DNA of 64,000 nucleotides from Dictyostelium discoideum (GCA_000004695.1 CM000152.2:5600001-5664000); one strand, 5' to 3'; positions 3,091-63,954 are shown, counted from the stretch's first letter. Program-made: numbers and translations. Notes: a model not told the origin generated them from the sequence alone.

Positions 3091-3181
<91 letters not shown>

Positions 3182-3475
3182 GTTATTATTATTATTGCCA
3201 TTTGATTTTGTCCTATTCTGTATTATAGTTTGTTGATTTATAATTTGTTTTTTTAAATCTTTTATCATATCACTGGTTATTGAAAAATCTTCTTTCGAAG
3301 AGGAAACGAAACCCATATCTAGGTCATTTTCATTTATAACAAATTTAGAATCTGAGCCGATACAATCTGATAGTTTAGAAATTAAAAAATCTCTACATAA
3401 ACTTAAAGATTTGCCTACAATAAGTTGGTTTGAACCAATTCCAAACTCGTCTAAATTATTTAATGTCAACTCCAT
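2309..3475 (-). CDS. HEPN-motif protein. N-terminal domain, poly-Asn linker, then a helical domain carrying an R-x4-H motif (FRNSWAHQRP). The 3' part is interrupted by a 100-N assembly gap.
   Basis: 388-aa ORF starting MELTLNNLDEFGIG. It contains LRNLLHEIYNFRNSWAHQRPFSIDDANRLLDSMERLF, which fits the HEPN Rx4-6H signature with a polar residue after R and surrounding helices. The ORF runs into the N-run at 2331..2430, so the true C-terminus is unresolved. Confidence 0.55.
2331..2430. other. Assembly gap (100 N)
   Basis: Literal run of n. It lies inside an (ATT/AAT)n coding repeat on the minus-strand gene, so the gap length is probably a placeholder. Confidence 0.95.
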
Positions 3476-7243: not shown

Positions 7244-9652
7244 TTAATGTTTAATATCAAGTTCATTTTCACTTTTTATTTGTATACCCAATTCATTTGC
7301 TTTATTTAATTTTGCAATTGCAGGTTTTTCACCAATTAATAGAATTTGAGTAAAAGAATTTATTGATGATTGAACTTTTGCATTAAATTTTCTTTGAATA
7401 AAATCTTTTACAAAATCTCTATCACCCAATTTAAATTTACCAGTAATTACAATATATTTATTTGATAAAAAACTATTATTATTTTCATTATTATTATTAT
7501 TATTATTATTACCAATTTCTTCATTATTATCATTATTGTTATTATGAGTTAATTTTAAATTATTTGATTTAAATTTAAAAATTAAATAATCTAAATATTG
7601 TTTTTCAAATTGATCTAATGGGTTAAAGAAATTAAAGATTGATTCAGAAGTTTGTCTACCAAGACCAGATTGTAATTCAATTGATTCGATTGATGGTGAA
7701 TTAATTAGATTATCCAGAGATTGAAATTTCTCAGAGAGGATCTTTGAATTTGAGCTTCCAATACCAGGTATACCTATAGCACAGAGTAGTGAAGCTAAAC
7801 CACGTGATTTACTATCCTCAATTGATTCTAATAAATTATTAACTTTTGTATGACTAAAACCTTTCAATGATAATAGTTTTTCCTTAAATTGATAAAGTTC
7901 ATACAAGTCACCGAAATCTTCAATTAATTGATTCTCTAATAATACTTGAATTTGACTTTTACCAACACCTTGAATATTCATTGCTTTCTTATCAACAAAC
8001 CATGAAATTTGTTGAACTAATTGATTTGGACAATTTTCAGCAACACAAAAATAATCAACATATCCAACTCTATTAACTAATTCACTTTTTAAATTACATG
8101 GACATAATATATTACCATTTTCATTACATTTAAATAATGATTCAATATTATTGGTATTATTGGTATTGGTATTGGTATTGGTATTATTGATATTATCATC
8201 AAGGTTAGTAATTATTTTTGGAATTACATCACCAGCACGTTCAATTAAAACTTTTGAACCAATTTTAATATTTAATTTATTGATGTATGAGAGATTATTT
8301 AAAGTTGCACGAGAAATGGTAACACCATGAACTTGAATTGGTTCAACCAATGCAACTGGTGTAATTCTACCACTTTTACCAACTTGTAAAACTATATCTT
8401 TTATTGTTGAAATTTCACTCTTTGCTCCAAATTTATATGCAAAAGCCCATCTTGGTGATCTATTAATGTCTCCTAATATTCTTTGAATATTTATATCATT
8501 CACTTTTATAACTATACCATCAATATCCCAATTATGATTCTCTCTTTTTTTAAGTTCCCATTCTTTTATAAATTCTTCAATATTTTTTATATCATTATTA
8601 TTACCACCACCACCAGTAGATAAAGTTACAACTGTATTTGAACCATTATCAATTTGAAATCCCATTTTTTCAAAAAGTTTTAAATTCTTTGATTGTGTAT
8701 TACAACGTTCATCATCAATTATCATTTCATTGTCATTTTCCTTTTCATTATCATTTTCATTTTCATTTTCACCATTATTAATATTATTATTGTTATTATT
8801 AGTTGGTATAAAAAAGTATGGAAAGAAATCAAATTTCATTTGTTCATTTAATAATAATATTGGTTCAATATTTAATGAATCATTAGCATCTTCTTCAATT
8901 GATTTCCTTAGAATACCAGATACAATATTTCTTGTATTTTTATATTGATGTTGATCATTATTATCAAGTTTTAATTTATTTATAATTTTTAAATATGATT
9001 TATTTAAAACAACCTCACCTCTAATTTCAAAATCTTTATATTTCTAATTAAAAAAAAAAAAAGGAATTAATATTAAATAATAATAATAATAATAATTACT
9101 AATATTAGAAATAAAATAAATACGGTTAAATTTGAAGGTAAAGTTAATAAATTTTTAAGTGATGGAATAAATTGTAATGCATTTGTTGTGATATCTTCAC
9201 CAATTTCACCATTACCTCTTGTTAAAACTCTTTTTAATTTATTATTTTCATAAACTAAACTTATACCAATACCATCATATTTCAATTCTAAAGAGTATTC
9301 AATTTGTTGTTGTGGTTGTTGTTGTTGTGATGTTTGTTTTTTTAATAGAAATTTCTCAATTTTATTTTTGAATGCAATTATATCATCTTTTGAATAAGTA
9401 TTTTGTAATGATAACATTCTTGATTTATGTCTGAATTTTAATCCTCTATTATTACTATAATCACTAATTGGTGCTCCAACTTGATTAGTAATAGTTTGTT
9501 GATTAAATTTCTTTTCTAAAATTTCTAATCTTTTAAATAATTTATCATATTCGAAATCTGATATTTCACTTTTAGATTTATTATAATATAAATCATTATA
9601 TCTATTAATTTTATTTCTTAATTCTTCAATTTCAATTATTTCATTATTATTA

Positions 9653-9690
<38 letters not shown>

Positions 9691-9734
9691 GTTTATAGTT
9701 GATGTAGTAGTAGTAAATTTACTACTTTTTAATA

Positions 9735-9771
<37 letters not shown>

Positions 9772-9831
9772 ATTACTATTTTTAAAATTTAAAAATAAAG
9801 TCTTTAAATATTTTGATTGTTGCCTAAACAT
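7244..9831 (-). CDS. ligA: Bacterial-type NAD+-dependent DNA ligase (LigA family), two exons
   Basis: Exon 1 is 9831..9124 and exon 2 is 9043..7244. The 80-nt AT-rich intron (9123..9044) is GT..AG on the minus strand, phase 0, and frame-consistent with both track ORFs. Exon 1 carries the Ia/adenylation domain: ISDFEYDKLFKRL, RMLSLQNTY, the KxDG motif LELKYDGIGISL and TRGNGEIGEDIT. Exon 2 carries DFEIRGEVV, NTRNIVSGILR, the OB fold RSPRWAFAYKF...ERAGDVIPKI, the Cys4 zinc finger CPCNLKS...CVAENCPNQL, the HhH LGIPGIGSSNSKIL and a C-terminal BRCT (KYIVITGKFKLGDRDFVKDFIQ...GEKPAIAKLNKANELGIQI). The N-terminus (MFRQQSKYLKTLFLNFKNS) is basic and hydroxyl-rich. Confidence 0.85.
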
Positions 9832-10804: not shown

Positions 10805-11967
10805 TTAATTTGTTGATGATAATGAAGCGGCATGTTTATCTTCCCAATATTGAATTCTTTTTGAACTAATTCTATGTTTTATTACATATTTAATAAAGAT
10901 ATCTTCATCAATTTCAAATGTTTCAAATGATCTTAAAATATTATAACATTTTTCAAAACTATCTTTATTTGCTAAAATTGATTCTTTAAAAAAAAAAAAA
11001 AAAAAAAAAAGGTCAGGATTTTGTTGTGTGTGTTTAGAATATGATATTATTTTTAATTTTTAACTTACTTTCATTTAATCTAAATAAAGCCATTGCAATT
11101 GAATAAACTATTGTATAACCTTCAGAGAAGATTAAATCCCAAACACGCAAGGAGATATGAAATGGGAAAGAATCTAAGAAACCAATTAGGAACCATTTTG
11201 TTGAATAAAGGGTGGTTGTTAAGTTAATATTATCTAAAGCATTTTTAGCAGCGGGGAAATAATGATTTAAAAGATTTTCAAAAACGAATGACATTCTTAT
11301 TAGACCTGGTAAACCTGATAAAAACATTGATCTCATTGAATATTCTGGTCTAGACATTAAAGATTGTAAAGTCCAAAAAGCATCTTCCTCTGATAGATAC
11401 ATCACTAATAAAGAAGCGATCGAACTCATACCTTGAGTATAGCCAACACCTTGGTCGTATAGTGAATAAACTTTCAAGACATTGAATAATGATACTTGAC
11501 CCATACCATAACGTTCTCTAAAAAATATATGATTTCTATAAGCTCTATTAACATCCAAATCTATATAAATCTCATTTGCAGAATGTTGATTCACCAATTG
11601 ATTGAATAAACCTGGATTCCTGGATTTCTCTTCTTGAGCATGTGATAACAATGGCCAAACCTCTGATCTCATTCTATCGGGTATACCTTTAATAGATCTA
11701 GATTTAAATTTACCTGTAAACTTGTGATTCAAATTATATCTCTTTATCATTGCATTCCATTTAATTGATCTTTCCAATTCTTTTTCAATCTCTTTTTTAT
11801 TCTTTAAAACACTTATATTTGATGTTAATCCACTATTAATAGTTGATCTTCTTGTATATTTTCTAGGTACTGGTGCAATTGGTGGTGATGGTGGTTCATT
11901 ATTAATTTCTTCATTTGTATTATTATTTGTATTATTATTTGTATTATTATTACTTGTATTATTATTT

Positions 11968-12004
<37 letters not shown>

Positions 12005-13253
12005 CATTTGAATTATTATAACCATACTGAATATTACCAAAACGATCTAATTTATTTAAAATTTTAATATCTTTATAATCTGAATAATCTTGTATTGATT
12101 GACGATAGGTATGATTATGTCTATTTAATGGTTTATAATGATATCTAAGGGAGATATCAGCACCATTTTGAGTTAGAGTTGTTGCTATATCATCATAGCC
12201 ACCATCCATTGCTAAATGAAGTGCTGTTTTTTGCTTTTTATCAATTTCATTAACTTTACAACCTTTTAATACTAATAATCTTGAACATTCAGTTTTACCA
12301 TTTGCACTTGATAGTATAATTGGTGTTCTTTCCAATGAATCCTTTTGATTCACATCAACATTATAATCCAATAATAAATTTAAAATTGTTGAATCACCGT
12401 TTCTAATTACTAAATGAATTGGACTTTCAATTTTTGTTGATTTTTTATAATATTCTAATAATTCATCAATTTCATTATTTGAATTATTTAAATTATTATT
12501 ATTATTATTATTACTACCACTACCACTACCACTACCACTACTACTAGTTGTAGTATTTTCATCTATATTTTCATTTAATGTTACAGTTTTATTTGGATCA
12601 GCTCCATATTTTAATAATAATAATACTATATCATTAAAACAATCAGATTCAATTGAAGTATATAATAAAGTTTTACCAGTTGATTCAATTGTTTTATTTA
12701 AAATTTCTTTAAAATTAAAATATTTATTATTTTCTTTAATTTCTTTCTCTCTTTCTAAATAAAGATTTAAATTTTCTTGAGAATATCTTATGGATTTTTT
12801 TTGTTGTGGTTGTTTCTTTTTTTCTATTTTCTCATCATCTTCATCATCTTCATCATCTTCCTTGTCATCATCTTTTATTATTTTTTCATTTTTTAAACCA
12901 GATAAATTCTCTAAATATTGACTTAATAAATTTGAATTATTTTCTTTAATTATTGATAAAATCTTATCAAATATTTCGTCCTTATTATCTTTTATTGCTG
13001 TTGAATTGTTTAAATATTTTTCTACTCCCTCGTTAATTTGTTGTTGTTGTATAATTGTTGGTTGCGGTATATTTTCGATTTCTACATTTATAGTTTCATT
13101 TGTTGTTATTGTATTGGTGGTTGTGGTTGTTGTATTATTATTATTTGTATTTTCCTTTATCTCCTTTTCTTCTTTTTCAATAATTATATTATTGTTGTCA
13201 TTACTAATATCTTGTGGTAAAGTTTGAGACTTTGTCTCTTCACTTGGATCCAT
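10805..13253 (-). CDS. TBC-domain Rab GTPase-activating protein with ankyrin repeats; probable short C-terminal exon
   Basis: 739-aa ORF 11034..13253. Ankyrin repeats: SPIHLVIRNGDSTILNLLLDYNVDVN...TALHLAMDGGYDDIATTLTQNGADI. TBC domain: RMRSEVWPLL, IDLDVNRAY (Arg finger) and YDQGVGYTQGMSSIASLL (Gln finger). A GTAAGT donor at about 11067 (minus) and an acceptor at about 10993 or 10960 give an in-frame terminal exon ending at the stop at 10805..10807. The 3' exon is inference. Confidence 0.7.
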
Positions 13254-13857: not shown

Positions 13858-16404
<2,547 letters not shown>

Positions 16405-30696: not shown

Positions 30697-31035
30697 ATGA
30701 CAATTTTATGTAAGTTAAATAAAATAATTAAAAAAATAAAAAAAAAACTAATTATTTATTTTTTTAAACATTTTTTTAAAATAGCTACAATCACTTCAAT
30801 TTCAAGACCAAATAAAATTAGTAAATCATTTGTTTCATCAAATGGAGGCTCTTCAATATCAATGGGTTCTAATTCAGTAGCATGTTATAATGCTTGTGGA
30901 GGTGGCTCAAGTTATTCATATAGCTCAAGTTACTCAGGTTCAGGTTTAGATTATTCATATAAGGCAAACTACTCAAGTTCAACTGGTAATAATTCCTATG
31001 TTGTAATTGCAAGTTCAACATGCAATTGTAATTAA
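30697..31035 (+). CDS. hssA/2C/7E-like small protein, copy 4 (most divergent: [19 protein letters not shown]...GNNSYVV...TCNCN)
   Basis: The track ORF starts at the same ATG (MTIL). The GTAAGT donor sits directly after ATGACAATTTTAT as in the other copies. The long ORF in the track is intron read-through. Confidence 0.6.
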
Positions 31036-31689: not shown

Positions 31690-32034
31690 ATGACAATTTT
31701 ATGTAAGTCCAATAAAATAATAAAAAAAAAAAAAACTAATTATTTATTTTTCTTAACATTTTTTTTTTTAATATCTAATATAGCTGCAATTACTTCAATT
31801 TCAAGACCAAATAAAAGTAGTAAATCAGTTATTTCATCAAATGGAGGTTCTTCATTATCAATGGGTTCTAATTCAGTATCATGTTTTAATGCTTGTGGAG
31901 GTGGCTCAAGTTATTCATATAGCTCAAGTTACTCAGGTTCAGGTTTAGATTATTCATATAAGGCAAACTACTCAAGTTCAACTGGTTATAATTCCTCTGT
32001 TATAATTGCAAGTTCAACATGCCATTGCAGTTAA
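31690..32034 (+). CDS. hssA/2C/7E-like small protein, copy 5
   Basis: The track ORF starts at the MTIL ATG. Intron donor GTAAGT is at about 31703. Exon 2 gives [41 protein letters not shown]...[10 protein letters not shown]. Confidence 0.6.
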
Positions 32035-32423: not shown

Positions 32424-32497
32424 TTATTGAGAGTTTGCTTTTTTACAAGGTCTTGAATCAGTGAGTAATAGACTGTCATCATCATTACCATTATTGA

Positions 32498-32555
<58 letters not shown>

Positions 32556-33719
32556 GTTGTTGTTCTGTTCTTGTTCCTTTATTAAATCAATATTAACAGT
32601 TGTATTATATTTTTCGATTAAAGTTAAAATTGAATTTGAAAGTTCTAAAAAGTTTACAGGTTTTGAACAATGTAAATCGAAACCACTTTTTAAAACCTTT
32701 TCTTTATCAGATGAGGAAACGGAAGCAGTTAAAGCAATGATTGGAGTTTTTTTATTTTGAGTGTTAATCTTTTCTCTATCTCTTAATTTTCTAACCATTG
32801 AATAACCATCTTCAAATGGCATGGTAAGATCGGAAAGGATAATATCTGGTTGAGGTTTACTTGAATCACAGAGAAAAGCATAAGCATCAGAGACGCGTTG
32901 AAAAGTATCAATTCTTTTTGCACCCAATTTATAAAGCATCGACGAGAATAGATGTGTTGTCTCCTCTAAATCATCTACTAGCATTATTTGAATTCCACCT
33001 AATAAATTCTTATTACTATTTGCTTTTGGTGATCTCAAATTAGGACTCATACTATTATTATTATTATTATTACTATTATTATTATTATTATTATTGTTGT
33101 TTGACGATGATTTTAATTCAGATAAAGGAGATGAGAATGGTGATAAAGTTGGTAAAATAAATGATGGTGATGGCGATGGTAATGGTAATGAATTAATCAT
33201 GTTAATTGCTGAACTTGGAGGTGTTGGTATTGTAGTATTATTACTGTTATCATCGTTGTTACTATTATTAATGTTATTATTTATTGCATTTGTAATAATA
33301 GTTTTTAAAAGAGAGTTATTATTATTATTGTTGTTATTATTATTATTTATAACCAAAGATAATTTTGGATTTAAATTTGTTGATGGGATTTGTGATATTT
33401 CTAAATTAATTTTTTTGATATCACCAATGTTATTATTGTTATTATTACTATTATTATTATTATTGATTGGATTCAATGCTGGTGAAGGTATCAAATTTGA
33501 AGAGTTCACTAAAAAGTTTTCAGAAATTGATGAGGTTGGAGGTGGTGGTGGTGTTCTTAATCTTAAATCTACATTATTATTCTCATTATTGTTTATTTCT
33601 TCTCTTTGTCTTTTACCTAATTTTTCATTATTATTTGAATTATTATTATTATTATTATTATGATGATAATTATTATTATTATTATTATGATTATTATTAA
33701 TTAAATTATTAATATTTAA

Positions 33720-33805
<86 letters not shown>

Positions 33806-33845
33806 TATTATTATTATTACTATTATTATTATTATAATTATTATA

Positions 33846-33935
<90 letters not shown>

Positions 33936-36900
33936 ATAATTTGTTGGTTGACTAAAGAAAGGTTTTTTAATTAAAGGTGGTGAAGATGAACAAGATAATT
34001 GATTTGAAGGAGAAGAATTTGAAGAGGAAGAACCTTTAATGATAGGTAATACGACAGTGAATTGTGAACCTTTATTTTCACCTTCACTATTTGCATAGAC
34101 GGCACCTTTATGAAGGTGAATAATATTTTGAGTGATTGAAAGACCAATACCCAAACCACCATAGGATCTAGTTGAACTACAATCAGCTTGTTTAAAACGA
34201 TCGAAAACACTTGGAAGGAACTGTTTTGGTATGCCTTTACCATTGTCAGTGATAGTGAAAAGGATCCAACGATCACCATGACGATTGATTGTGTTAAACA
34301 TTGGATTGGAACAAAAACCCAATACTTCACGTGAAGGTATTTGATTTACAACCTTTAGATTTAAATGGATTCTACCTTTTTCTTTAGTGAATTTAATAGA
34401 GTTTGAAAGTAGATTCCAAATGACTTGTTGCAATCTTGCTTTATCACCAACGATGTTACGTAGAATTGAGGATTCTTCTTCACCTTCACCTTGAATATTG
34501 GAATGGACAGAGATCTTTTTAGATTGAGCTGTAACGAGTATTGAGGAGATTGCATTCTCAATTAAAATTGGTAAATCAACATCACCTAAAATTAAACTAA
34601 ACTTATCACCAATAATTAATGACATATCCAAAAGATCATTGATAAGTTGATTTTGAGAGCTTGCACAACGTTCAATAGTTTCTAAACCAGTTCTAACTGT
34701 TGAATCATCACCTGAAATTGAACCACTGCCACCACCACTACTACCACCACTATCAATATCATATAACAATAATTGACACCAACCTAAAATTCCATTTAAT
34801 GGAGTACGAAGTTCATGAGATAAATTCATAAAGAATTCATCTTTTGATTTATTTGTATTATTTAGTAGATTTCTTTCTTTTTCCAATTCACCAACCAAAG
34901 TTTGTAAATCTCTTTTCTTATTTGTTAATTGATTAATTAATTCTTGAAGATCTGTATTTGCAGAACTTAATTCTTCTTGTAGGAATTGTTTTGCTTTTTT
35001 CATAGTCATTAAATTAACTACACGTGCCACCAATTCTTCAGAGGAGAATGGTTTATTGACATAATCAGAGACACCATTTTGTAATAGTTTAATTCTTAAA
35101 TTTTCATCAGCTTTTGCAGTTAATAAAAGTATAGGAATATTATCAAATTGTTCATCGGATCTTAATTGTTCAACCATTTCATCACCACTCATACGTGGCA
35201 TCATACAATCGGTTACAATGAGATCGGGTGTTATTGCTCTTGTCTTTTCAATGCCCTCAACACCATCGAATGCTGTGACCACGAAATAATATTTACTTAA
35301 TAACTCTGCAATGAATCTATTCATCTCTGGATTATCTTCAACCACTAAAACTATTGGTTTATTATGTATATTTTCTTGTGATTGATAAAATTGTTTCTCT
35401 GTTAATTCCTCAACAGCTTGTTGAGCAATTGCATGAACTCCCATTATACTACCCATATTATCTTTTAATGCATTTGAAGCAATATCTGAAGATGTATTTG
35501 TTTTTTTTAAAATATTAAAATTTAAACCATCCTCATCATCGTCGTCGTCGTCGTCGTCATTATCGTCGTCGTTTATTTTATATTTATTATCGATATTATT
35601 TAAAATTAATTTTGGTTGTTGTAAATTTTGTTGTTGTTGTTGTTGTTGTTGTTGTTCTTGTTGTTGTTGTTGATATAATTGTTGTTGAATTTCAGAAATA
35701 TTTTGATCGGATATAGTTTTTTTATAAAGATGCTCATCCATATTTGGAGTGAGTGGTAGTCTGAGGGTGAATTGAGCACCACCAGTTGAAATGTTATGAA
35801 TGGTGACAGTGCCACCATGTAAAGTTACAAACTCCTTTACAATTGAAAGACCTAAACCAGTGCCACCATGCTTTCTAGTTGAAGAACCATCCACTTGTCT
35901 AAACCTTTCAAAGATGATCTCGTGTAAATTATCTGGTATACCAGGACCAGTATCAGACACCACGATTTGAAAGCCAGGTTTATTTGGTGACAAATCAAAT
36001 TTCTCTAAAATACACTTTACTGCACCACCTGATGGTGTGAATTTAAATGCATTGGAAATCAAATTTGTTATAACTCTTTGCATTTTATCTGCATCAATTG
36101 CTGCCATCATTGGTTCAGATGGTGTAATGATTGAGAAATCCAATGATTTCTCTCTTGCTAAAATCTCAAAACAACTTGCAATCAAATGAACGGTTTGACC
36201 TAAATTAACCATACTATAATTTAAATTCATTTTACCTGCTTCCAATCTACTTATATCTAATAAATTATTTACAATCTTTAATAATCCTCTTGCATTTCTT
36301 GCAACAATCTCTAAATCTTTTCTAACATTTATATCTACATTTTCATCTTTTAATAATTTATCTGTTGGTCCAACAATTAATGCTAATGGTGTTCTTAATT
36401 CATGTGAAACATTTGCACTAAAAAAAAAAAAAAAATTAGGTTATTATTATTTTTTTTTTTTTTTTTTTATTTTTTTATTTTTAAAAAATTACTTACAAAA
36501 ATTGAGTTTTTAATTCATCCAATTCTTTAATTTTTTCATATAAACTTCTTAATTCATTATTTTTTCTTTCGATTTCTAATTCACCTAATCTTTTTTCAGT
36601 GATATTTCTACCCTCGGGTAAGATGAGTGATACCTCACCTTTATCGTTAAATAATGGCATCAATGAGAAATCAATTGTAATCTTTTCGGTACCAGCTGAT
36701 TTACCAAAGATTTCAGTTTCATAACGTATAAATTCACCTTTTGATGCTTTATGAACTGCCTCTCTAACATTATCTATATTCTCTTGTGATGTTGCCCACC
36801 ATCTACAATCCCAAAATGGTATACCTTGAATACTTGAACGTATCATACCACCACCTTGTAATGCTGGTTCATTTACATCTAATAAATTACCATTAACATC

Positions 36901-37271
36901 TAATAATGCTACAAACTAAATAATTATTTAAAAAAAAATAATAAAAAAATAAAAATAAAAATAAAAAAATAAAAAATAAAAATAATTAATACAATATTAA
37001 AATTATTGATTAATTTATTAATTAAATAATATTTAAAACTTACTTGATACATTTCATCTAACATAATACGTGCATTTTTATTCGAATTTGAGACAGCTCT
37101 TAGATGATTAATTTCTTCAATAAGTTCTTCTCTAGTTTTTTCATGGTCAGGTTTTTGCTTTCTCATATAATGAATCTGTTGTTGTTGACTGGTTATACTA
37201 AATACTGCTCCTGTATCCCCATCAGCCTTTAAATAATTGGTTGAGGCCGTAGTTGTTGATATATCTTGCAT
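32424..37271 (-). CDS. Double hybrid histidine kinase: PAS - HisKA/HATPase - REC - HisKA/HATPase - REC (about 1547 aa), three exons
   Basis: Exon 1 is 37271..37044 (MQDISTTT...DEMYQ), donor GTAAGT. Exon 2 is 36915..36497, a PAS/PAC domain (IQGIPFWDCRWWATSQEN...), donor GTAAGT. Exon 3 is 36417..32424. It carries H-box 1 FSANVSHELRTPL, N/G1/F/G2 boxes (DTGPGIP, GGTGLGLSIV), REC1 (IVLVVEDNPEMN...VTDCMMPRMSGDEM...LLLTAKAD), a coiled coil, H-box 2 NLSHELRTPLNGILGW, HATPase 2 (TDNGKGIP, GGLGIGLSI), a roughly 300-aa Asn/Ser/Pro linker and REC2 (IMLVDDLEETT...ILSDLTMPFEDGYSM...IIALTAS). Phases match track ORFs 36924..37271, 36493..36846 and 32424..36245. The architecture resembles the Dictyostelium double kinase described as DhkD. 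That identification is from memory and is not verified. Confidence 0.85.
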
Positions 37272-38519
37272 TATTATTATTATTATACTTAATAATTATT
37301 ATTATTATAATAATTATAATTATTATTATTATTATTTATTATTTTTATTATTATTATTATTATTATTTATTATTGTTTTTTTTATATATATGTGAATTTA
37401 TGTGATAAAATAATGCAAATAAATAAATTTGTGGAGAGTGTGTTTGGTGTGTATTTATGCGTATGTGTGTTTTTGGTGTGTGTGTGAATGTGTTAGTGAG
37501 TGTGTATCAAATCATATATGTTTACATATAAAGTTTTTAATAAATAAATTAAAATAAAAATAAAAATAAAAAAAGAGAAAAGACACACTTATTTATGTTT
37601 CTAATATATTAATATGTAGTACATGTGTTATTTATTTATAATTATATTGTTTTGTTTTGTTTTTTTTTTTTTTTTTTTTTTGGTGTTTCGTTTATTTTTT
37701 TTTTTTTTTTTATTTTTTTTTTTTTTTTTTATTTTTTTATTTTCAAAATTTTTATTATTTTTAAATTTAGTTTAGTTTAGTTTATTATTAAATTATTTAA
37801 TTTGCTTATATATGTGTGCATTTTAACCAAAGGAAAAATAAAAAAAAATAGTTTTATTTTTTTATTTTTTTAATTAATTAATTCAAAAAAAAAGTTTTTT
37901 TAATTAAATTTTTTTTTTTTTTTTTTTTAAATTTTTTTTTTTAATTTTTTTTTTTTTTTTTTATTTTTTTATTTTTGTACCTCTTTTTTTATTATTGTTA
38001 TTATTATTTTTTTTTTTTTTCATAAAAAAATTAAAAATAATATTTAAACAGTTAGCAGTTAGAGTGAAAGACTTTTTTAGAAAAAATAAAAAATAAAAAA
38101 AAAATACCAAACTTATTATGAAATAAAATTTAAAATAAATAAATAAATTACATAAACCAAATTTAAAAAAAAAAATAAAAAATAAAAAAATTTAATTAAA
38201 AAAAGAGTTCATTGTTGGTGAGAGTGTATTTATTGGGCTACTTTGTTTCTTTTAAATCGAGATAAATCCCGAGATTCAATCTTTTTTATTTTTTTTTTGG
38301 AATTTTTTTTTTTTTTTGGAATTTTGTTTTGTTTAATTTTATTTTATTTTTATTTTTATTTTTTTTTTTGGGGGATTTAATTAATCTATAATCAAATTAC
38401 AAATGGTGTTATGTGAAAATGATTTGTTTTTTATTTTTTTTTTAATTAATTTATTATTATATTAATTAAAAAATTGACCAATGAAAAGTTGAATTAAATT
38501 TAGTTTAATCAAAAAAAAA

Positions 38520-39989: not shown

Positions 39990-41144
<1,155 letters not shown>

Positions 41145-41698: not shown

Positions 41699-44600
41699 AT
41701 GTTTTTTAAAGGTAAAAAAAAAGATAAAGAAAAGGAAAAATCACATGGTAATATTGGAAATGTAATATCAGTTGAAAATAAAACAGGTAGTCAATCAAAT
41801 TTACATGTTGAACAAAATTTATCAAATGAAGATTTAAAAATTCAATTCTCACAATTACTCTATGAATTGGGTGTACCAGAAGCAAAAAGAGTTGAAATGG
41901 AGTTATGGTCAAATGATAAGAAATGGATGTTATTAGTTCAAAATAAAGATAAAATCAAAGAGAATGAAGAAAAGATGAAACAAAAAGGTTCACTCTATGA
42001 AACACCACAATTTTATCTTTCATTATTACGTGAAAATGCTTCAATTCAAAAAACAATCTCTGATCTTAAAGTATCGTTGGCTTCAAATAAATTATCTTGG
42101 ATTGATTCTTTCATTGGTTTATCAGGTTTTGATGAAATTTTAAAAATTTTTCAAACTTTTCAATTAAAACCAGAGTAAGTTTTTAATTTAAATTAAAAAA
42201 AAAAAAAAATAGTATAAATTATTAATTAATTTTTATTTTTTTTAAATTTTTTAAAAAAATAATAAATAGAAAAAATTCAATTGATTTTTTAATTTTATTT
42301 GATTGTGTTAATATTATAAAATCAATATTAAATAGTCAAAGTGGTGTTAAATCAGTGATGACAACATCACATACATTTAAAGTATTGGTATTATGTTTAG
42401 ATCAAAGTTATCCACCAGAATTAAGAAATGCAGTATTACAATTGACAGCAGCATTAACATTGTTACCAACGGTTGGACATAGTTATGTATTGGAGGCAAT
42501 TGAAAATTTCAAAGTTTCAAATCGTGAGAAAGTACGTTTCCAAACCATTATTGAGGGTGCAAAATCAGTATCAAACACTCAACTTCATTATGAATATTTA
42601 ACAAGTTTTATGAATTTAGTAAACTCTATCGTAAATTCACCAGCAGATTTACAAGTTCGTATTGGTTTACGTTCAGAATTTACCGCTTTGAAATTGATTG
42701 AATTAATATCAAACTCAAAGGGTGTCTCTGAAGATTTAGACACTCAAATCAATCTATTCTTTGAATGTATGGAAGAGGATAACGATGAAGTTGGTGCACA
42801 TTACAAAGAGGTTAACATTAGATCACCAAGTGAAGTTAGCACTAAAATAGATACCCTATTACAAAGTCATCCAGCACTTCATCATCATTTCATTTCAATC
42901 ATTAAAGGATTATATACTTTAGCTTCAACTCAATCTGATTTAGGTGGTTCAATGTGGAATATTTTAGATGAATCTGTTGGTTTAATCTTAAAAGATCCTT
43001 CAAAAGAATCTCAACTTGAAAAATTACAAAATGAAAATAATAATTTAAAATTACAATTATCTGAAATAAAATTAAATAATAGTAATAATAATAATAATAA
43101 TAATAATAGTAATAATAATAATAATGATAGTAATGTTTCAACTCCAAATATTAATACTGGTTCACCTTTACTTCCACCACAACAATATCAAGATCTTGAA
43201 CAAAAATTACAATTAACTCAAAATGAAAAAAATGAATCACAAAATAAAGTTAAACAGTTGGAATCAGAGATTAAAGGTTTAAATTCAACTCTTACAGGTT
43301 TACAATTAAAAGTTACAAAATTAGAAGCAGATTTATTAAGTGTTAGTGTTACAACACCACCTTCAGATACTAATGGTACTACATCACCACCAATCGAAGC
43401 ACCATCATCACCATCATTGGGTGCCCCACCACCACCACCACCACCACCACCTGCTCCACCAGTTTCAGGAGGAGGTCCACCACCACCTCCACCTCCACCA
43501 CCACCATCATCAGGAGGAGGTCCACCACCACCACCTCCACCACCATCATCAGGAGGTCCACCACCACCACCTCCACCTCCAGGTGGAATGAAAAAACCAG
43601 GTGCACCAGCTGTACCAAATTTACCACCAAAAAAATCATCAGTACCATCTGTTAAAATGGTTGGTCTTCAATGGAAAAAAGTTAATAATAATGTAATTGA
43701 AAATTCAATTTGGATGAATGTTAAAGATTATAATTTGAATGATCAATTTAAACAACTTGAAGAATTATTCCAAGTTAAAAAACCAACTGCAACTACTCCA
43801 ACTGCTCCAGTAGGTGGTGCAAGTAATGTAGCAGTTGGTGGTGGTAGTGGTTCAAAATCAATAGTATCAACACCAACTATCAGTATTTTAGATCCAAAAA
43901 GATCACAAGCAATTATGATTATGTTATCAAGATTTAAGATTTCATTTCCAGATTTAAGTAAAGCAATAACAAATTTAGATGAAAGTAAATTAAATTTAGA
44001 GGATGCAAAATCTTTATTGAAATTTGTACCAAGTTCAGAGGAAATTGAATTATTAAAAGAAGAGGATCCATCATGTTTTGGTAAACCAGAACAATTCCTT
44101 TGGGAACTTAGTAAAATCAATAGAATCTCTGAGAAATTGGAATGTTTTATCTTTAAACAAAAACTTTCAACTCAAATCGAAGAATTAACACCAGATATTA
44201 ACGCATTATTAAAAGGTTCAATGGAAACCAAAAATAATAAATCATTCCATCAAATTCTAGAGATTGTATTATCATTGGGTAATTTCATTAATGGTGGTAC
44301 ACCACGTGGTGATATTTACGGTTTCAAATTGGATTCTCTTAGTGGTCTATTGGATTGTCGTTCACCTTCAGATTCAAAAGTAACCTTAATGACTTGGTTA
44401 ATTCAATTCTTGGAGAATAAACATCCATCTCTTTTGGAATTCCATCAAGAGTTTACTGCAATCGATGAGGCAAAGAGAGTATCAATTCAAAATTTACGTT
44501 CAGAAGTTGCTTCATTAAAGAAAGGTTTAACATTGCTAACTAATGAAGTTGAAAAGAGTGAAGGTGCTTCAAAGACAATTTTAAGTGGTTTCGTTGGTAA

Positions 44601-45174
44601 ATCAACAGATGCCGTCACTTTAATTGAAAAACAATTTAATACCGCCCTTGAATCCTTTAATTCAACCGTACAATTCTATGGTGAAGATGTTAAAACTTCA
44701 TCACCTGAAGAATTCTTCCAACATGTTTCAAAATTCAAAAATGAATTCAAACGTACAATTGAATCAATTCAAAAGGAAAGAGAAAATGTTCAAAAATTAG
44801 CCGCTAGAAAGAAAGCTGCTGCTTCTGGTCCATCTGTGCCATCTGCTTCTGGTTCTTCAATTAATATCGCTCCAAAATCTGGTGTTTCTCCAATTACTCC
44901 AACTTCAAAATCTTCAATTTCAATCTCACAAAAACCACCACAATCAACTCAACCATCAATTTCTGTTCAGCAACAACAACAACAACACCATGGCGACGAC
45001 GATGATGATATACCACAAAATGGTACTTTTATGGATCAATTAATGAGTAAAATGAAAGGTGGTGAAGCAATTCGTGCATCTAGAAGAGCTTCACAATATG
45101 TTTTCACTCAAAATGGCGCTGGTGGTGTTGGTGCAATCGATGCATTAAATGCTGCATTGAAAAATAAAAAATAA
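41699..45174 (+). CDS. Diaphanous-related formin (GBD/FH3 - coiled coil - FH1 - FH2 - DAD), two exons
   Basis: Exon 1 is 41699..42174, donor GTAAGT at 42175. The acceptor AG is at 42334/42335 and exon 2 is 42336..45174, phase-consistent. The FH1 proline tracts are PPPPPPPPPAPPVSGGGPPPPPPPPPPSSGGGPPPPPPPPSSGGPPPPPPPPGG. The FH2 domain follows (...GNFINGGTPRGDIYGFKLDSLSGL...). A C-terminal DAD-like motif is GTFMDQLMSKMKGGEAIRASRRA. Confidence 0.85.
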
Positions 45175-54802: not shown

Positions 54803-56554
54803 CTATTTTTAGTATGTAGCGCTAGAAATTTACCAAATATGGATTTATTATCACAATCAGCCGATCCATATTGTGAAATTTTCTTTGAAAATCAACAAGT
54901 TTTTAAAACTAATATAATTAAAAAAACAAAGAATCCAACTTGGAATGCACATTATAATTTAATTGTTAACGAATCAAAATTAAAATATGATATTACATTT
55001 AAACTTTGGGATTGGGATAAAACATCACAAAATGGTAAATTTAATTTTATTTTTTATTTTTATTTTATTTTTTTTTTATTAATTATTAATTTAATTTTTT
55101 ATTTTTTTATTTTTTAAGATTATATTGGTAAAGTTGAATTATCATTAAATGATATATTAAATAAACCAATTAAAGATGAATGGTATAAAATTATAAAAGA
55201 GAAAAAGAATGGTAAAATTAAAGAACGTGGTGAAATTCATATTTTAACTAAAGTGATAACAAAAGAAGAGGTTTATGATTCATTTGTTAGTAGTATTACC
55301 AAACATTTTTCACATACAGAAGATGATACATTAAATATTACAGATTTCACAGGTCTAATTACAACATTGAATAGTGAATATCCAGAACCAGATATAGTTC
55401 AACTATTTAAGAAAACCGATTCCGATTCGAATGAAACTATATCAGTATCTGAATTAAAGCATTTATTTTGTGAAACTGAGCAAGGCAAAGAATTGATCAA
55501 CACTTTATTCCAAGGTAATACCAATTTAATGTGGGAAGCATACGCAATCTCTGATAGCTATTCCACGATTGCCGATAACATTTTCCATAAGAATTTCGGT
55601 GGATCTTTAAAATCAGATTCAGATAGTAAACAAAAGGTGAAAATCATCTACATTCACGATAGAGAGAGTGGAAAATTAGTTGAAGAGAAAATCCCACACT
55701 ATATCGAGGTTAGTCTTAGAATTATGTATTCAACAAGTGGTGGTAGATCCGCAATAAATAATAGTCAAGTAAAACGATTAATGAGATATTTAACCAATAA
55801 AACTGGTAAAAAGTATGAAGCACCAGAATCTGTGAAAGAGATTCAACCATTCATTAAATTCCATTCACTAAATGTCGATGAAATACTTGACCCATTATCT
55901 AGTTTTAAGAATTTTAATCAATTTTTCTATAGAAAATTAAAAGATTCCGCCAGACCAATCGCCTCACCAAATGACCCAAAAATCGCTGTATCCCCTGCTG
56001 ATTGTAGATTAAATGTTTTCCCAACTATTAAATTAGCAACTGAACTTTGGATTAAAGGTAAGAATTTCACATTGACAACATTGATTCAAGACGAGCAATT
56101 GGCAAGTCAATATGAAGATGGCTCATTGGTAATTGCAAGATTAGCACCACAAGATTATCATAGATTCCATGTACCAGTATCTGGTGTTATTGGTAAATCA
56201 ACACCAATCGATGGTGAACTATATACCGTTAATCCAATTGCAATTCGTGAAAATGTTGATGTCTATTGCGAAAATAAACGTATTGTAACCGAGATTGATT
56301 CAAAGGAATTTGGTAAAGTTTTATTCATTAGTGTTGGTGCAACTTTGGTTGGTTCCATTCATTTAACTACTAAACAAGGTCAACATGTAAATAAAGGTGA
56401 TGAACAAGGTTATTTCGCTTTTGGTGGTTCAACAATTTTATTATTATTTGAAAAGAATACAATTGAATTTGATAATGATTTAATTGTAAATTCTTTAAAA
56501 CCAACTGAAACTTTAATAAAAGTTAATTCATCATTAGGTAAAAGTTTATTATAA
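54662..56554 (+). CDS. Phosphatidylserine decarboxylase proenzyme, PSD2-type, with N-terminal C2 domain and an EF-hand; three exons
   Basis: Exon 1 is 54662..54695 (MDKIENIVSIT-G), donor GTATG. Exon 2 is 54813..55034 (C2: VCSARNLPNMDLLSQSADPYCEIFF...), donor GTAAAT. Exon 3 is 55119..56554. It contains the EF-hand FKKTDSDSNETISVSELKHLF and a PSD domain with the autocleavage motif FAFGGSTI (LGST-type) and catalytic HRFHVPV. Phases were verified against track ORFs 54839.. and 55253... Confidence 0.85.
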
Positions 56555-60191: not shown

Positions 60192-63100
60192 ATGGCAGGA
60201 GGACCAATCGGAGCAACAGCTATTTGGGAGAATAGTTTAAAAGTTGCATTGATATGGGGTATTTTTATGTTAATTTCATCATTAACGATTATATTAGTTA
60301 GAATATTAAGAAAGAATAAACCACCCGAACTTAAACTATCACTTCGTTCAAAATTGGAGATATATTTAGCATACACTCATATTGGTGAAATGATAGAATT
60401 TATTCAAGTAGCTTTTAGTATATTTTCAGTATTACTATTTATATATGGTACATACATAACATCAAAAGAACCACCAACATTTTATTTAGTATTAGAAGTT
60501 GTTTTAGTTTTCTTTTTCATTTTACATTGGTCTTTAGATTTTTTCATTTCAAAGGATAAGTAAGTTAATATAATTATATATTTTATTTAAAACCAATAAT
60601 AATAATAATAAAAAATAATAATAATAATAATAATAATAAACATCATCATCATTATTATAGATTAAGATATTTATTTTCATTCTTTTCAATAGTTGATATG
60701 ATTTGTGTTTTACCAATTTTAATTGATATTCAAAGTGGTGATTTTAAAAATCTATTAAATACATTTCAATTCCTAAGAGTTTTAAGAGTAATTAGAATTT
60801 TAAGATTACAAAGAGTACTTCATTATTTTAAAAATGGTTAGTATTTATAAAATAATTAAATAGATATATATAAATGATAGATGATTGAATTTAATTTAGT
60901 ATTATATACAATACTAATTAAATAAATGATGATGATGATGATTGTTATTTTAGAGGTTACAAAATATACATTTAAAGCATTTATAGTTGTATTTTCATTT
61001 ATTATGGTATTAGCAGGATTTTATATGAATGTTGAAGTTCATCCATCAGGAACTCCATTACAATTTCATGAAACTGTTTACTTTTTAGTAATTACATTGG
61101 CAACTGTTGGTTATGGCGATATTTATCCAACTACTGCTTTAGGTCAAATTACAATCACTCTAGCATTAACGATTGGTGCTGGTGTTTTAATTCCATATCA
61201 TATATCAAAATTAATGGAAAAATTACAACAAGATTCTCGTATGTACACCTCTTTTTTTTTATTTTTTTTTATTTTTTTTTCATTTTTTTTTTATACTTGT
61301 ACTAATAATTAAAAAAAAAAAAAAAAAAAAAAGCATTTTTAAGAAATTTATCATCATCATCAATTACAGGACATGTTATATTATGTGGTGATATAACAAT
61401 ATCACATTTATTAGATTTTTTATCAGAGTTTTATCATGAAAGATATGGAAAATTAAAGAAAGAATTGGTAATATTATCACCAAAAGCACCAGATGATAGA
61501 ATTAAAGCATTATTACTTCACCCATTTTATAAGAATCGTTTAATCTATTTAAAGGGATCACCATTATTTGAACATGATTTACAACGTACTAAAATTTCAA
61601 AAGCAGATTCAGTATTTATAACATTACCATCATCTTGGAATTCAGCAGATACAGATAATATTTTATGTTCATATGCTGTAAAAAGTCAATATAAAAATTT
61701 GAAAATATTTTCACATTTAATTTCATCGAAAAATAAGAATAAATCACCATTTTTAAAAGGATCGATTTATGTTGAAGAATTTAGATGTGCAATGTTGGCA
61801 CAATCAATAGTGTGTCCAGGATATAATATTTTATTTTCAAATTTATTTACAAGTAGAACTATACCAACGATGGTATCACATAAATGGTTAACAGAGTATT
61901 ATTATGGTACCAATCATTCGATTTACATAATAAAAGTACCAGAGTTTTTAGTTGGTGAACAGTTGACAGATGTTATACTTTCAATGTATTTTGGTAATGG
62001 TAGTTTATTGATTGGTATAATGGAGCCACAAATTGTAGTCTCTGTTTGTTCTCAACAAGGTCCAAGTTTAACTTCAAGTGGTACCTATATACCAACATCA
62101 CAAAAACCAACAACCTTACCACCTAAATTTCATTTAAATCCACCTCAAACTACAATTTTAACAATAGATATGCAATTGGTATTAATATCACATACTGTAA
62201 ATTTAACAAGTAAACATTCATCAAGAGCAGAGAAAAGACAACAACAAAAACAACAAGAAATTCAAAAAAGAAAAAAAATTCAAATTAATAGTATTGGTGG
62301 TGAATATGATGATGAAAATACTGATGATACTGATTTTCAATCAATGAATGAAGTTTTAAATTTTAATTCAAATTTAACAAATAATAATTTAAATAATAGT
62401 TTAACAAATAATAATAATAATTTAAATAATAATGATGATGATTATAATAATAATAATTTTATAATTAAAATTTATAAAAAAATTAATCAATTTTTTAATA
62501 AATTAGCAGTACCAGATTTAGAATTATTAATTAATGAAGTTGAACAACAAAATAATCAAGAAACTAAAGATCAAGCTATGAATGAATCATTAAAAACTTT
62601 TATAGTTTCAAATAAATCAAAAAATAAAGATAATAATGGTAGTGGTGGTAATGGTAGTGGTGGTAATGGATTTAGTCGTGGTGGATCATCAATGAATTTT
62701 AGAAATAATAGTATGACTGGATTTGGATCATTATCAAGTCCACAATCAATTGATGAGAATCTTGATCAATCAATTATGGAATTCAATAGAGAACACGAAG
62801 AAGAGGAATTAACCTCTAAGGAATTAATAAAATCATTATGTCTTTCAGAATATAATGGTGATTGGATTGCTCTATTAAGTGATATTAGTTCACAAAAAAC
62901 ATCAAATCCAAAGACAGAGGAGATTTTAGAAAGAATTCGATTGGTAATTGATAAACATTCTCTAATGACTTTTACAACTCATGGAAAATTTGGTAAAGGT
63001 AAAAAAGGTTCAAAAAATTCAATGAAAGGTCATATGTTAATCATTTGTAAATCGTTGAGAGGTTTAGATTTATTTTTACATCATTTACGTTTACCTTATA

Positions 63101-63954
63101 TTTCATCGATTAAAACAAATACAATGGCTAAATCTGGTGTTCAACCAATCGTTGTACTCTATAAAGATGAACCACAAGATGAGAGTTGGTTTTCAACTGT
63201 TAAAACGTTACCATTGATTGCATTTATTAAAGGTTCATCATCGAATAATGTCGATCTTGATAAATGTGGTGCAAAAAATGCTGAAACCATTATAATCACT
63301 TCGGATCCATATTATGATCAATCCAATTTATCATCGGCTCAAGAGAATTTAGTAGATTCATTCACATTGATGTCCTATGTCGACGTAATCAAGGTTAATA
63401 GAATCGCAAAGATAACCGTTGAATTAGTACATGAACCAAATATTAGATTTTTAGAGGATAAGAAAATTCAAGCATGTGGTTCCAATAAAAGATTTCATAC
63501 TTATTTACAAGCTAATCAAGAGAAAACTTTCTTAAAACCAGAGTTTTTCTCAACTCCACATTATGCATCGGGTGGTGTTATAACATTCACTGTATTGGAT
63601 TCATTAACTTGTCAAGCTCATAATAATCATTTGATAAAAGATGTCGCCCATGAATTGGCATTTGGTGTAAATGGTTTATCACAATCTTATTCAACATTTG
63701 GTTTATCAAGTTGTGTTAATCAAGATTCAAAATGTTTTAGTAGATTAATTGGTATACCTGCAATGTTTCATGGTAGATCCTATGGTGAAGTTTTAAAATA
63801 CTTTTTACAACAAAAAAATCTTTTGGTTTTAGGTCTTTATCGTTCAAAAATACCAATGAGTGCTCCTGTTGATTATATTTATACTTGTCCACCACCAACT
63901 TGTATTTTACATGAAGGTGATCAAGCTTATGTTTTATCAAATTCACCAATTTAA
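60192..63954 (+). CDS. BK/Slo-like large-conductance K+ channel (voltage-sensor S4, TVGYGD pore, tandem RCK domains), four exons
   Basis: Exon 1 is 60192..60559 (TM segments), donor GTAAGT. Exon 2 is about 60660..60836, with the S4 helix FLRVLRVIRILRLQRVL. Exon 3 is about 60953..61238, with the pore helix and selectivity filter TLATVGYGDIYP. Exon 4 is 61334..63954, with RCK1 starting GHVILCGDITISHLLDFL and continuing through two RCK/TrkA-like domains (829-aa track ORF). Introns are 95-115 nt with GTAAGT/GTTAGT/GTATGT donors. Confidence 0.8.

Follow-up and report, generated by a model that had tools for sequence, protein, structure and literature searches.

Dictyostelium DhkD as a probably soluble double sensor kinase with a TodS-type PAS domain and bacterial counterparts

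The gene at 32424..37271 on the minus strand of the 64,000-nucleotide stretch of Dictyostelium discoideum DNA analyzed here (the window) is dhkD, which has already been named. Comparison of the encoded protein with its relatives indicates that it is most likely a double sensor kinase that is soluble, resides in the cytoplasm, and has bacterial origins, and we lean toward the view that its modules work in series and not as parallel relays. Neither the gene nor its double architecture is new to the literature: Singleton & Xiong 2013 described DhkD with two kinase and two receiver domains, and the published protein (UniProt Q54SP4) also carries a PAS/PAC region and has been placed in the "DhkD branch" of amoebozoan dual histidine kinases (PMC6324907). 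What is new here is the match of the sensor half to TodS, the finding of no transmembrane segment, the positional bacterial counterparts of the individual domains, and an LvrB-like helix between receiver 1 (REC1) and kinase 2.

The identity of the gene was established from published primers and a partial GenBank protein, an exact look-up of the 1546-aa protein having given no match. Since five of the six primers (dhkD-3, -5, -6, -17, and -23) matched the window exactly, and GenBank AAB84171.1 (D. discoideum, partial) was 99.0% identical to the encoded protein over 702 aa, the gene proved to be dhkD itself, the kinase with which the initial annotation had proposed to compare it; primer dhkD-4 matched with three differences. 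The published amplicons were reproduced at 1174 bp (promoter, exactly) and 812 bp, and the codons published for the 812-bp fragment, 310-580, agree with the gene model. The promoter fragment of 1174 bp is bounded by dhkD-23 (38421..38400) and dhkD-17 (37271..37248), so placing the intergenic upstream promoter of the published lacZ fusion at 37272..38421 on the minus strand. In the gene model, three exons (37271..37044, 36915..36497, and 36417..32424, stop codon included) are separated by two GT..AG introns of 128 and 79 nt (37043..36916 and 36496..36418; G+C, 4-6%), and the spliced coding sequence of 4641 nt encodes 1546 aa. Both splice junctions (slashes) restore motifs conserved among homologs, i.e., DEMYQ/FVALLD and KTQF/FANVSHELRTPL. 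A single ORF continuous over 3.8 kb had been read from the DNA beforehand; it was right to treat the locus as one gene, but that ORF (32424..36245) begins within exon 3 of a three-exon gene and so leaves the first H-box further upstream, and intron 1 divides the PAS domain. That the domains sit in a single polypeptide is supported by the same collinear order in five other dictyostelid sequences, including P. violaceum, Acytostelium subglobosum, and Synstelium polycarpum, and in bacteria, as well as by the published codon numbering. An antisense ORF on the plus strand (33094..33663) reads as Leu-rich, mirroring the linker rich in Asn, and was not taken as a gene.

A Pfam search (HisKA, HATPase_c, and Response_reg, each found twice) together with residue alignment bore out the PAS-kinase-receiver-kinase-receiver order that had been proposed, the second kinase and second receiver (REC2) being separated by an Asn-rich linker. 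Pfam PAS_4 scored 20.6 bits at residues 72-185, slightly under its 23.1-bit cut-off; the crystal structure of TodS PAS1, to which this domain aligns without gaps (5hwv/5hwt; 48% identity, E = 5e-37), establishes the PAS fold. On the minus strand, Pfam and the alignments place the TodS-PAS1-type PAS domain (residues 74-198, split by intron 1) at 36550..37052 and kinase 1 (HisKA, residues 212-277, split by intron 2; HATPase_c, 324-439) at 35748..36510. A Gln/Asp/Asn-rich linker delimited by spacing and composition (about residues 440-571; 35352..35747), which is expanded relative to bacterial homologs, leads to REC1 (residues 572-682; 35019..35351; Pfam and alignment). Next come the signaling helix (34845..35018; spacing, periodicity, and AlphaFold2) and kinase 2 (residues 741-1008; 34041..34844; Pfam, alignment, and AlphaFold2), whose DHp loop holds a Gly/Ser-rich insertion. 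The low-complexity Asn/Ser/Pro-rich linker behind kinase 2 (residues 1009-1357; 32994..34040; spacing and composition) had been described correctly in composition (46% Asn, 13% Ser, and 8% Pro), but its length is 349 aa rather than roughly 300. REC2 (residues 1358-1480; 32625..32993; Pfam and alignment) is followed by an Asn-rich C-terminal tail (residues 1481-1546), read from the translation, which occupies 32424..32624 together with the stop codon. The distance between the final Gly of the G2 box and the acidic pair of REC2 is 390 residues in DhkD but 67 in Synstelium and in the compact Acytostelium ortholog (1104 aa), and bacterial values are usually 63-73.

The catalytic residues of all four signaling domains are intact, as had been stated for both H-boxes and both receiver Asp sites. 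The H-boxes read VSHELRTPL (H221, codon 36404..36402) and LSHELRTPL (H750, codon 34817..34815); kinase 1 further retains N338, D371/G373/G375, F385, and G401/403/405, and kinase 2 retains N888, D940/G942/G944, F954, and G970/G972/G974. REC1 has E576, D577, D619 (codon 35210..35208), T649, and K671, and REC2 has D1364, D1365, D1412 (codon 32831..32829), T1446, and K1468. Across the six dictyostelid sequences all of these positions, from the H-boxes and the N, G1, F, and G2 boxes to the phospho-accepting Asp, acidic-pair, Thr, and Lys residues of the receivers, are identical, and in 114 bacterial homologs they are invariant or conservatively replaced (Ser/Thr, Asp/Glu).

The closest relatives of DhkD share its central order of domains. 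Kinase-REC-kinase was found in all of the best 120 homologs, among which REC2 was absent in 32 and REC1 in none. It also recurred in about 130 of the 143 proteins newly returned among the best 150 cluster representatives (50% identity), a search that adds scores over repeated domains and so favors multi-domain proteins, the count being a lower bound on architectural diversity rather than a frequency. That tandem modules are rare, as the initial annotation had it, is true only in a relative sense. Bacterial PAS_4 (or ETR1_N)-kinase-REC-kinase(-REC) proteins of ~850-1100 aa (e.g., Myxococcus sp. P0035 and cyanobacterial P0022 and P0055) are collinear with DhkD and 50-53% identical to it over PAS and kinase 1 (PAS-HK1). 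They differ in having no low-complexity linkers, in lacking REC2 in about a quarter of cases, and in a sensor that is sometimes an ethylene-receptor-type membrane domain. When the dictyostelid domains were compared with bacterial profiles of the same versus the other position, the scores were 325/207 bits for kinase 1 (K1), 186/61 for REC1 (R1), 212/141 for kinase 2 (K2), and 88/41 for REC2 (R2). Because each domain scores best against the bacterial profile of its own position, the cassette appears to have been inherited as a unit. Within DhkD, identity is 32% between K1 and K2 and 25% between R1 and R2; given these values, and with each domain nearer to its positional bacterial counterpart, we rejected the idea that the two modules arose by internal duplication within Dictyostelium. 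A neighbor-joining tree, built without support values, gave a hint of bacterial ancestry. These comparisons document a whole five-domain signaling cassette common to bacteria and social amoebae.

A search with PAS-HK1 only returned many short single-kinase proteins with 46-53% identity, some of them on long contigs. Since single-kinase proteins of similar identity exist, the DhkD-type sensor module is not confined to double kinases; the proteins returned were 298-663 aa long, many were fragments from 1-8 kb contigs, and the dictyostelid orthologs were missing, so this search does not rank single against double kinases. The genomic neighborhoods of two bacterial homologs were dissimilar, with no adjacent response regulator and no shared regulon, and in the literature on bacterial histidine kinases with doubled modules we found nothing on this family and no characterized member of it. 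Among eukaryotes, fungal dual histidine kinases (group XII, e.g., Cryptococcus Tco2) are likewise described as single chains with a pair of kinase and a pair of receiver modules, and dual kinases are described as polyphyletic (PMC6324907).

The stretch joining REC1 to kinase 2 has a conserved length. From K671 of REC1 to H750 there are 79 residues, and every one of the six dictyostelid sequences has this same Lys-to-His spacing, as do 33 of the 114 bacterial proteins; 72, 47, and 40 are further length classes, the classes differing pairwise by seven residues. This linker has a hydrophobic period of 3.5, contains no conserved Pro or Gly, and is conserved in sequence from bacteria to Dictyostelium. 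In the AlphaFold2 monomer model (mean pLDDT 84.5), residues 675-772 form a single helix running from REC1 alpha5 through H750, with pLDDT of ~68 in part of it. A Foldseek search with the REC1-kinase 2 half returned, as its top solved match, LvrB of Leptospira (8vc9; E = 4e-21 over 456 aligned columns), the prototype Rec-controlled histidine kinase, in which a REC domain is joined directly to DHp/CA by a coiled-coil signaling helix. The TM-score was low (0.33), and the likeness therefore lies in domain order and helix rather than in rigid-body geometry. The two proteins are ~18% identical, the DhkD helix is ~24 residues longer, and DhkD, unlike LvrB, fuses an upstream kinase (the role of LvrA) and a downstream receiver into the same chain. 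In LvrB, phosphorylation of Rec causes a coiled coil to form and sets the catalytic domain free (PMC13269768).

The sensor half, on the other hand, resembles the Pseudomonas aromatic hydrocarbon sensors TodS, TmoS, and StyS. With these DhkD shares a soluble character (predicted for DhkD), a PAS1-type pocket, the spacing of kinase 1, a central receiver, a conserved helical extension behind that receiver, and a second kinase, at 42-48% identity across PAS-HK1-REC. The spacing from PAS to H-box is free of gaps, such that TodS numbering equals the DhkD residue minus 31 and TodS H190 corresponds to H221. Among the 12 toluene-pocket positions listed by Koh et al. 2016, nine are identical between TodS and DhkD, as are TodS I74 and the switch triad F46/E146/R148 (F77/E177/R179 in DhkD); the pocket equivalents in DhkD are F77, A79, V90, A94, I105, F110, W115, W116, I145, I157, F159, P176, and G178. 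F110 is the counterpart of TodS F79, whose F79A mutant is ligand-blind. Since three pocket positions are larger than in TodS (G48A, V126I, and A145P), the cavity may be smaller than toluene-sized, or closed; these larger states are also common across the bacterial relatives, for which ligands are known only for TodS, TmoS, and StyS. StyS from a genuine styS-styR-styA-styB cluster was 42% identical to DhkD over the 397 aa of PAS-HK1 (E = 1e-101) and 44% identical over REC1 and the start of the linker. The remainder differs: the StyS HK2 is only 25% identical to DhkD kinase 2 (H-box THELNQPL versus SHELRTPL), DhkD kinase 2 being of another type and non-orthologous to the HK2 of TodS and StyS. 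DhkD also has a fused C-terminal receiver where TodS, TmoS, and StyS have a separate NarL-type regulator, and, being a eukaryotic protein, it is encoded by a gene with introns and is expanded by low-complexity stretches. Between REC1 and kinase 2, Pfam gave no PAS match corresponding to PAS2, the 79-residue helix lying there instead.

These comparisons bear on whether kinase 1 feeds kinase 2, a question raised in the initial annotation, for which serial wiring is the favored answer. In the proposed scheme, the PAS domain, with its TodS-PAS1-type pocket, would bind a small hydrophobic, possibly aromatic molecule and thereby control autophosphorylation of kinase 1 at H221, as expected from homology to TodS. 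The phosphoryl group would pass from H221 to D619 of REC1, and REC1, judging from the anatomy of the protein and the LvrB precedent, would serve as the input domain of kinase 2: once phosphorylated, it would switch on autophosphorylation of H750 through the fixed-length coiled-coil helix that continues unbroken into the second H-box. Direct Asp-to-His transfer, which has been shown for TodS, may contribute at the step from REC1 to H750. From H750 the phosphoryl group would move to D1412 of REC2, and the signal would then enter the RdeA/RegA cAMP-phosphodiesterase relay, as suggested by published Dictyostelium genetics, in which regA is epistatic to dhkD (PMC3783435). We infer all of these transfer steps in DhkD. 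Serial wiring is favored because a REC domain lies between the kinases in every one of the best 120 homologs while REC2 can be missing, and because of the fixed 79-residue spacing, the 3.5 period, the unbroken AlphaFold2 helix, and the precedents of LvrB and TodS.

The wiring could alternatively follow TodS strictly, as a His-Asp-His-Asp relay in which the phosphate of D619 is passed chemically to H750, the kinase 2 His acts mainly as a transfer station, and the helix plays no allosteric part. Among the relatives, TodS alone has been dissected biochemically, its relay runs H190-D500-H760-TodT (PMC4861429), and phosphorylation of TodT needs all three of these residues (PMC4861429, PMC4321377); in addition, DhkD is homologous to StyS over PAS-HK1-REC1 and the first ~50 residues of the linker, and over the PAS domain also to TodS. 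Nevertheless, we regard a strict relay as rather unlikely, as the predicted helix of ~75 residues (~11 nm) between REC1 and H750 is unfavorable for transfer within one protomer, the ATP-binding boxes of kinase 2, which a pure transfer station would not need, are all invariant across the family, and kinase 2 is not of the TodS/StyS HK2 type and lacks a preceding PAS2. Two parallel modules, with kinase 1 serving REC1 only, kinase 2 serving REC2 only, and each receiver signaling to RdeA separately, would agree with the complete and intact receiver that follows each kinase, and dual kinases also occur in fungi (PMC6324907). This arrangement is improbable, however, given that the conserved bacterial core is kinase-REC-kinase with an optional REC2 and an ever-present REC1, that the spacing from REC1 to the second H-box is fixed and heptad-stepped with a linker sequence conserved from bacteria to Dictyostelium, and that kinase 2 has no other input domain. 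Against the favored explanation itself stand the three larger pocket residues, the second half of DhkD, which departs from the TodS model in having no PAS2 and a different type of H-box, the low TM-score with LvrB, the monomeric AlphaFold2 model with its lower pLDDT in part of the helix, the single-kinase proteins with a similar sensor module, and the dissimilar neighborhoods of the two bacterial homologs.

The published picture of DhkD is that of a single-pass membrane receptor whose extracellular PAS/PAC region, beyond a transmembrane helix, binds an extracellular ligand, as stated by Singleton & Xiong 2013, citing UniProt Q54SP4. To this picture we give very little credence. A hydropathy scan of the whole protein found no transmembrane segment, the highest 19-residue Kyte-Doolittle mean being 1.43 against the usual threshold of 1.6, and this best candidate, located within the core of kinase 2, includes three Asp and a Lys; an extracellular PAS domain is therefore unsupported. 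No N-terminal hydrophobic signal was found in the sequence either, and the PAS domain is separated from H221 by only ~35 residues, all charged helix, which align without gaps to TodS, a soluble protein without transmembrane regions (PMC4321377). The comparative results would thus recast DhkD: not a receptor in the membrane for some extracellular ligand, but a soluble sensor of the TodS type that responds to a small hydrophobic molecule.

The TodS match of the sensor half suggests what kind of molecule is detected. More speculatively, DhkD could be a eukaryotic member of the TodS-like kinases acquired by horizontal transfer, a cytosolic receptor with a conserved PAS pocket for a small hydrophobic or aromatic compound able to cross membranes; volatiles from bacteria or food and aromatic polyketide signals made by the cell itself would be examples. 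We raise this possibility tentatively. If true, it would for the first time predict a ligand class for this kinase, without which tip formation and prestalk patterning are lost; dhkD-null cells show a pollywog phenotype. In the literature, we found no link between TodS and Dictyostelium, the two names co-occurring, unconnected, in one paper. A TodS-type sensor would narrow the search for the DhkD signal to a few binding experiments and point mutants, e.g., F110A. The wiring scheme, for its part, offers a concrete proposal on a question posed by all eukaryotic dual kinases, with two experimentally solved bacterial precedents in TodS and LvrB.

The dhkD gene occupies 32424..37271 on the minus strand, where the initial annotation had proposed a PAS-kinase-receiver-kinase-receiver order in one polypeptide. 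By reading and assembling the sequence, we modeled three exons (37271..37044, 36915..36497, and 36417..32424) separated by two GT..AG introns of 128 and 79 nt with 4-6% G+C, in a window of ~20% G+C whose composition includes long poly-Asn coding tracts. The 4641-nt CDS encodes 1546 aa, and both splice junctions restore homologue-conserved motifs: DEMYQ joined to FVALLD resembles LYEFVGLLD of TodS, and KTQF joined to FANVSHELRTPL agrees with the family consensus. Pfam matched HisKA, HATPase_c, and Response_reg twice each, while PAS_4 on residues 72-185 scored a little under the curated cut-off; the gene model and this domain search bear out the proposed order. The H-boxes and receiver Asp sites are intact, as had been claimed, among the canonical residues of kinase 1 (H221, N338, D371/G373/G375, F385, G401/403/405), the middle receiver REC1 (E576, D577, D619, T649, K671), kinase 2 (H750, N888, D940/G942/G944, F954, G970/972/974), and the terminal receiver REC2 (D1364, D1365, D1412, T1446, K1468). 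With codon coordinates of key residues checked against the window, these positions were conserved in 6 dictyostelid and 114 bacterial sequences, a few in bacteria being conservative swaps (Ser/Thr, Asp/Glu). The Asn-rich linker between kinase 2 and REC2, put at ~300 aa in that annotation, measures 349 aa (46% Asn). The original observation is thus confirmed and its interpretation supported.

The suggested comparison with annotated DhkD established the gene as dhkD, whose disruption and primers were described by Singleton & Xiong 2013 (PMC3783435). Primers dhkD-3, -5, -6, -17, and -23 each had one exact site in the window, all where expected; dhkD-23 to dhkD-17 spans 38421..37248, exactly the published promoter fragment size of 1174 bp, and dhkD-3 to dhkD-4 spans 812 bp (codons 310-580), agreeing with the publication. 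A partial GenBank protein, AAB84171.1 ('hybrid histidine kinase [Dictyostelium discoideum]', 709 aa; P0271 in our homologue searches), was 99.0% identical over 702 aa. Its mismatches fall at residues 114-115 (including W115, a pocket position), 147, 292, 349, and from 479 on, with a one-residue gap in a poly-Gln tract and eight divergent final residues; the pattern suggests errors in early sequencing or a different strain. Most amoebozoan dual kinases have been placed in a 'DhkD branch', and fungi also have dual kinases (Kabbara et al. 2018). Since both identity and dual architecture are published, dhkD and its double architecture were already known, and we have rediscovered them.

What can usefully be added concerns, in part, topology. 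DhkD has been described as spanning the membrane in a single pass and having an extracellular PAS/PAC (PMC3783435). However, a 19-residue Kyte-Doolittle scan of the whole protein gave no candidate transmembrane span; the maximum mean, 1.43, lay in a segment inside the kinase 2 core bearing three Asp and one Lys. The ~35 residues between the PAS domain and H221 form a charged helix. DhkD would in this respect resemble TodS, a Pseudomonas aromatic-hydrocarbon sensor kinase that is soluble and lacks transmembrane regions, and the published membrane-receptor picture, unsupported by the sequence, is corrected.

The sensor half can be assigned to the TodS family, with its hydrophobic pocket conserved, a second addition. 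Among solved structures, the DhkD PAS domain matched only TodS PAS1 (5hwv/5hwt; 130 bits, E = 5e-37), without gaps, so that TodS residue numbers equal DhkD numbers minus 31; this offset places the published TodS H190 on H221. Of the 12 TodS toluene-pocket residues (F46, G48, V59, A63, F79, W84, W85, I114, V126, F128, A145, G147; Koh et al. 2016), 9 are identical among the 12 DhkD equivalents (F77, A79, V90, A94, F110, W115, W116, I145, I157, F159, P176, G178). The three replacements, G48A, V126I, and A145P, are bulkier, and the DhkD pocket may be the smaller one. The switch F46/E146/R148, strictly conserved in the TodS family (Koh et al. 2016), corresponds to F77/E177/R179. Pocket and triad patterns are the same in each of the six dictyostelids and hold across 81 PAS domains from bacteria. 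PAS identity is 48% between DhkD and TodS PAS1, close to the 51% between TodS and StyS. For StyS we used the protein encoded in the styS-styR-styA-styB cluster on plasmid pSTY. Over PAS-HK1 (397 aa, E = 1e-101) it shares 42% identity with DhkD, and over REC1 and the initial ~50 linker residues 44%; beyond these, it carries PAS2 and a kinase whose H-box differs (THELNQPL) and whose identity to DhkD kinase 2 is only 25%. In the literature library searched, no paper connected TodS with DhkD.

Kinase 2 itself appears to follow a Rec-controlled design, a third addition. The REC1 Lys lies 79 residues from the second H-box His in 6/6 dictyostelids and 33/114 bacteria; other spacing classes are 72, 47, and 40, with pairs differing by seven residues, and longer spacings reflect an inserted domain. 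The linker sequence is kept between bacteria and Dictyostelium with a hydrophobic period of 3.5, and its alignment contains no conserved Pro or Gly. AlphaFold2 (residues 568-1010, 40 aligned sequences, mean pLDDT 84.5) predicted a single helix, 675-772, from REC1 alpha5 onward through H750. The top solved-structure match to this region was Leptospira LvrB (8vc9; 456 aligned columns, E = 4e-21, albeit with a low TM-score), the prototype Rec-controlled kinase, in which phosphorylated Rec induces a coiled coil in the signaling helix, freeing the catalytic domain to autophosphorylate (PMC13269768).

We favor a serial wiring, inferring every transfer step: a PAS ligand would act on H221 of kinase 1, H221 would pass phosphate to D619, D619 would switch on kinase 2 through the helix so that H750 is phosphorylated, and H750 would feed D1412, which would signal to RdeA/RegA. 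The last step is proposed because regA is epistatic to dhkD and from the general Dictyostelium relay (PMC3783435). A 2025 study reports that dhkD-null mounds were rescued by ammonia or adenosine deaminase, with cAMP raised. For the middle step, the chief alternative is direct Asp-to-His transfer, for which TodS offers a precedent. The ATP-binding boxes are invariant in kinase 2 and the predicted helix is long and rigid, which favors allosteric control, but both could operate. Two parallel, independent phosphorelay modules are unlikely, since REC2 is often missing among family relatives, whereas REC1 never is. Together with the topology and the TodS-type sensor, a Rec-controlled kinase 2 yields testable predictions on ligand class and wiring.

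In a large protein collection that lacks the full-length D. discoideum DhkD entry, the top matches to DhkD were dictyostelid orthologues of identical five-domain order (Polysphondylium violaceum, Acytostelium subglobosum, Synstelium polycarpum, and two more). Acytostelium and Synstelium have 67 residues separating the G2 box of kinase 2 from the acidic pair of REC2, versus 390 in D. discoideum, so the Asn-rich tract is a lineage-specific expansion. Bacterial proteins of ~850-1400 aa followed (600-700 bits), with PAS_4 as N-terminal sensor or, in some (cyanobacteria), an ethylene-receptor-type domain. Kinase-REC-kinase order was present in 120/120 best matches, 88 of them with the terminal REC; an exhaustive REC1-linker-kinase 2 search (representatives of 50%-identity clusters) found kinase-REC-kinase(-REC) order in ~130 of 143 newly returned proteins among the best 150. 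When profiles of the four bacterial domains were scored on dictyostelid domains, each was best on its positional counterpart: first kinase on K1 (325 vs 207 bits), middle receiver on R1 (186 vs 61), second kinase on K2 (212 vs 141), and terminal receiver on R2 (88 vs 41). These scores and the mutual K1/K2 identity of only 32% rule out duplication within the amoeba, and thus the cassette was inherited whole. The six dictyostelids formed a single clade among bacteria in a neighbor-joining tree of K1+R1 (StyS root, no support values), and over PAS-HK1 a Protostelium nocturnum homologue was less like DhkD (41%) than bacterial proteins were (50-53%), which together hint at horizontal acquisition from bacteria.

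The PAS-HK1 module also occurs in single-kinase proteins, and one 2017-aa protein from the linker search (P0250) carries two double-kinase units in one chain (kinase-REC-kinase-kinase-REC-kinase). The two bacterial neighborhoods examined had no common theme: P0116 (contig L002) follows an Rnf operon, while directly downstream of P0035 and convergent with it (Myxococcus sp., L003:2808-5060) are dienelactone hydrolase, Fe-dependent alcohol dehydrogenase family, and ABM monooxygenase genes, a set reminiscent of aromatic-compound catabolism.

Elsewhere in the window, an ORF at 7244..8839 (-), possibly continuing into 9073..9831 (-), encodes LigA-type NAD-dependent DNA ligase domains (adenylation domain end, OB fold, HHH, BRCT). 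Such ligases are typical of bacteria, so this window of an amoeba genome may contain a second case of bacterial ancestry. A polyubiquitin gene at 39999..41144 (+), with five head-to-tail repeats and a terminal extra Asn, is oriented divergently to dhkD, and 2.7 kb of AT-rich spacer lies between the two. Immediately downstream of dhkD are tandem paralogues at 30697..31035 (+) and 31690..32034 (+) whose small products (112 and 114 aa; PF05710, 'Coiled') are rich in Gly and Ser. A Leu-rich mechanical ORF of 189 aa at 33094..33663 (+), antisense to the Asn-rich linker, mirrors that low-complexity tract and shows no sign of being a gene. By domain match, the HEPN_Swt1 (2309..3475, -), ankyrin and RabGAP-TBC (11034..13253, -), leishmanolysin M8 (13858..16404, -), formin FH3/FH2 (42355..45174, +), phosphatidylserine decarboxylase (55253..56554, +), and BK-channel RCK (61465..63954, +) ORFs are ordinary eukaryotic content.
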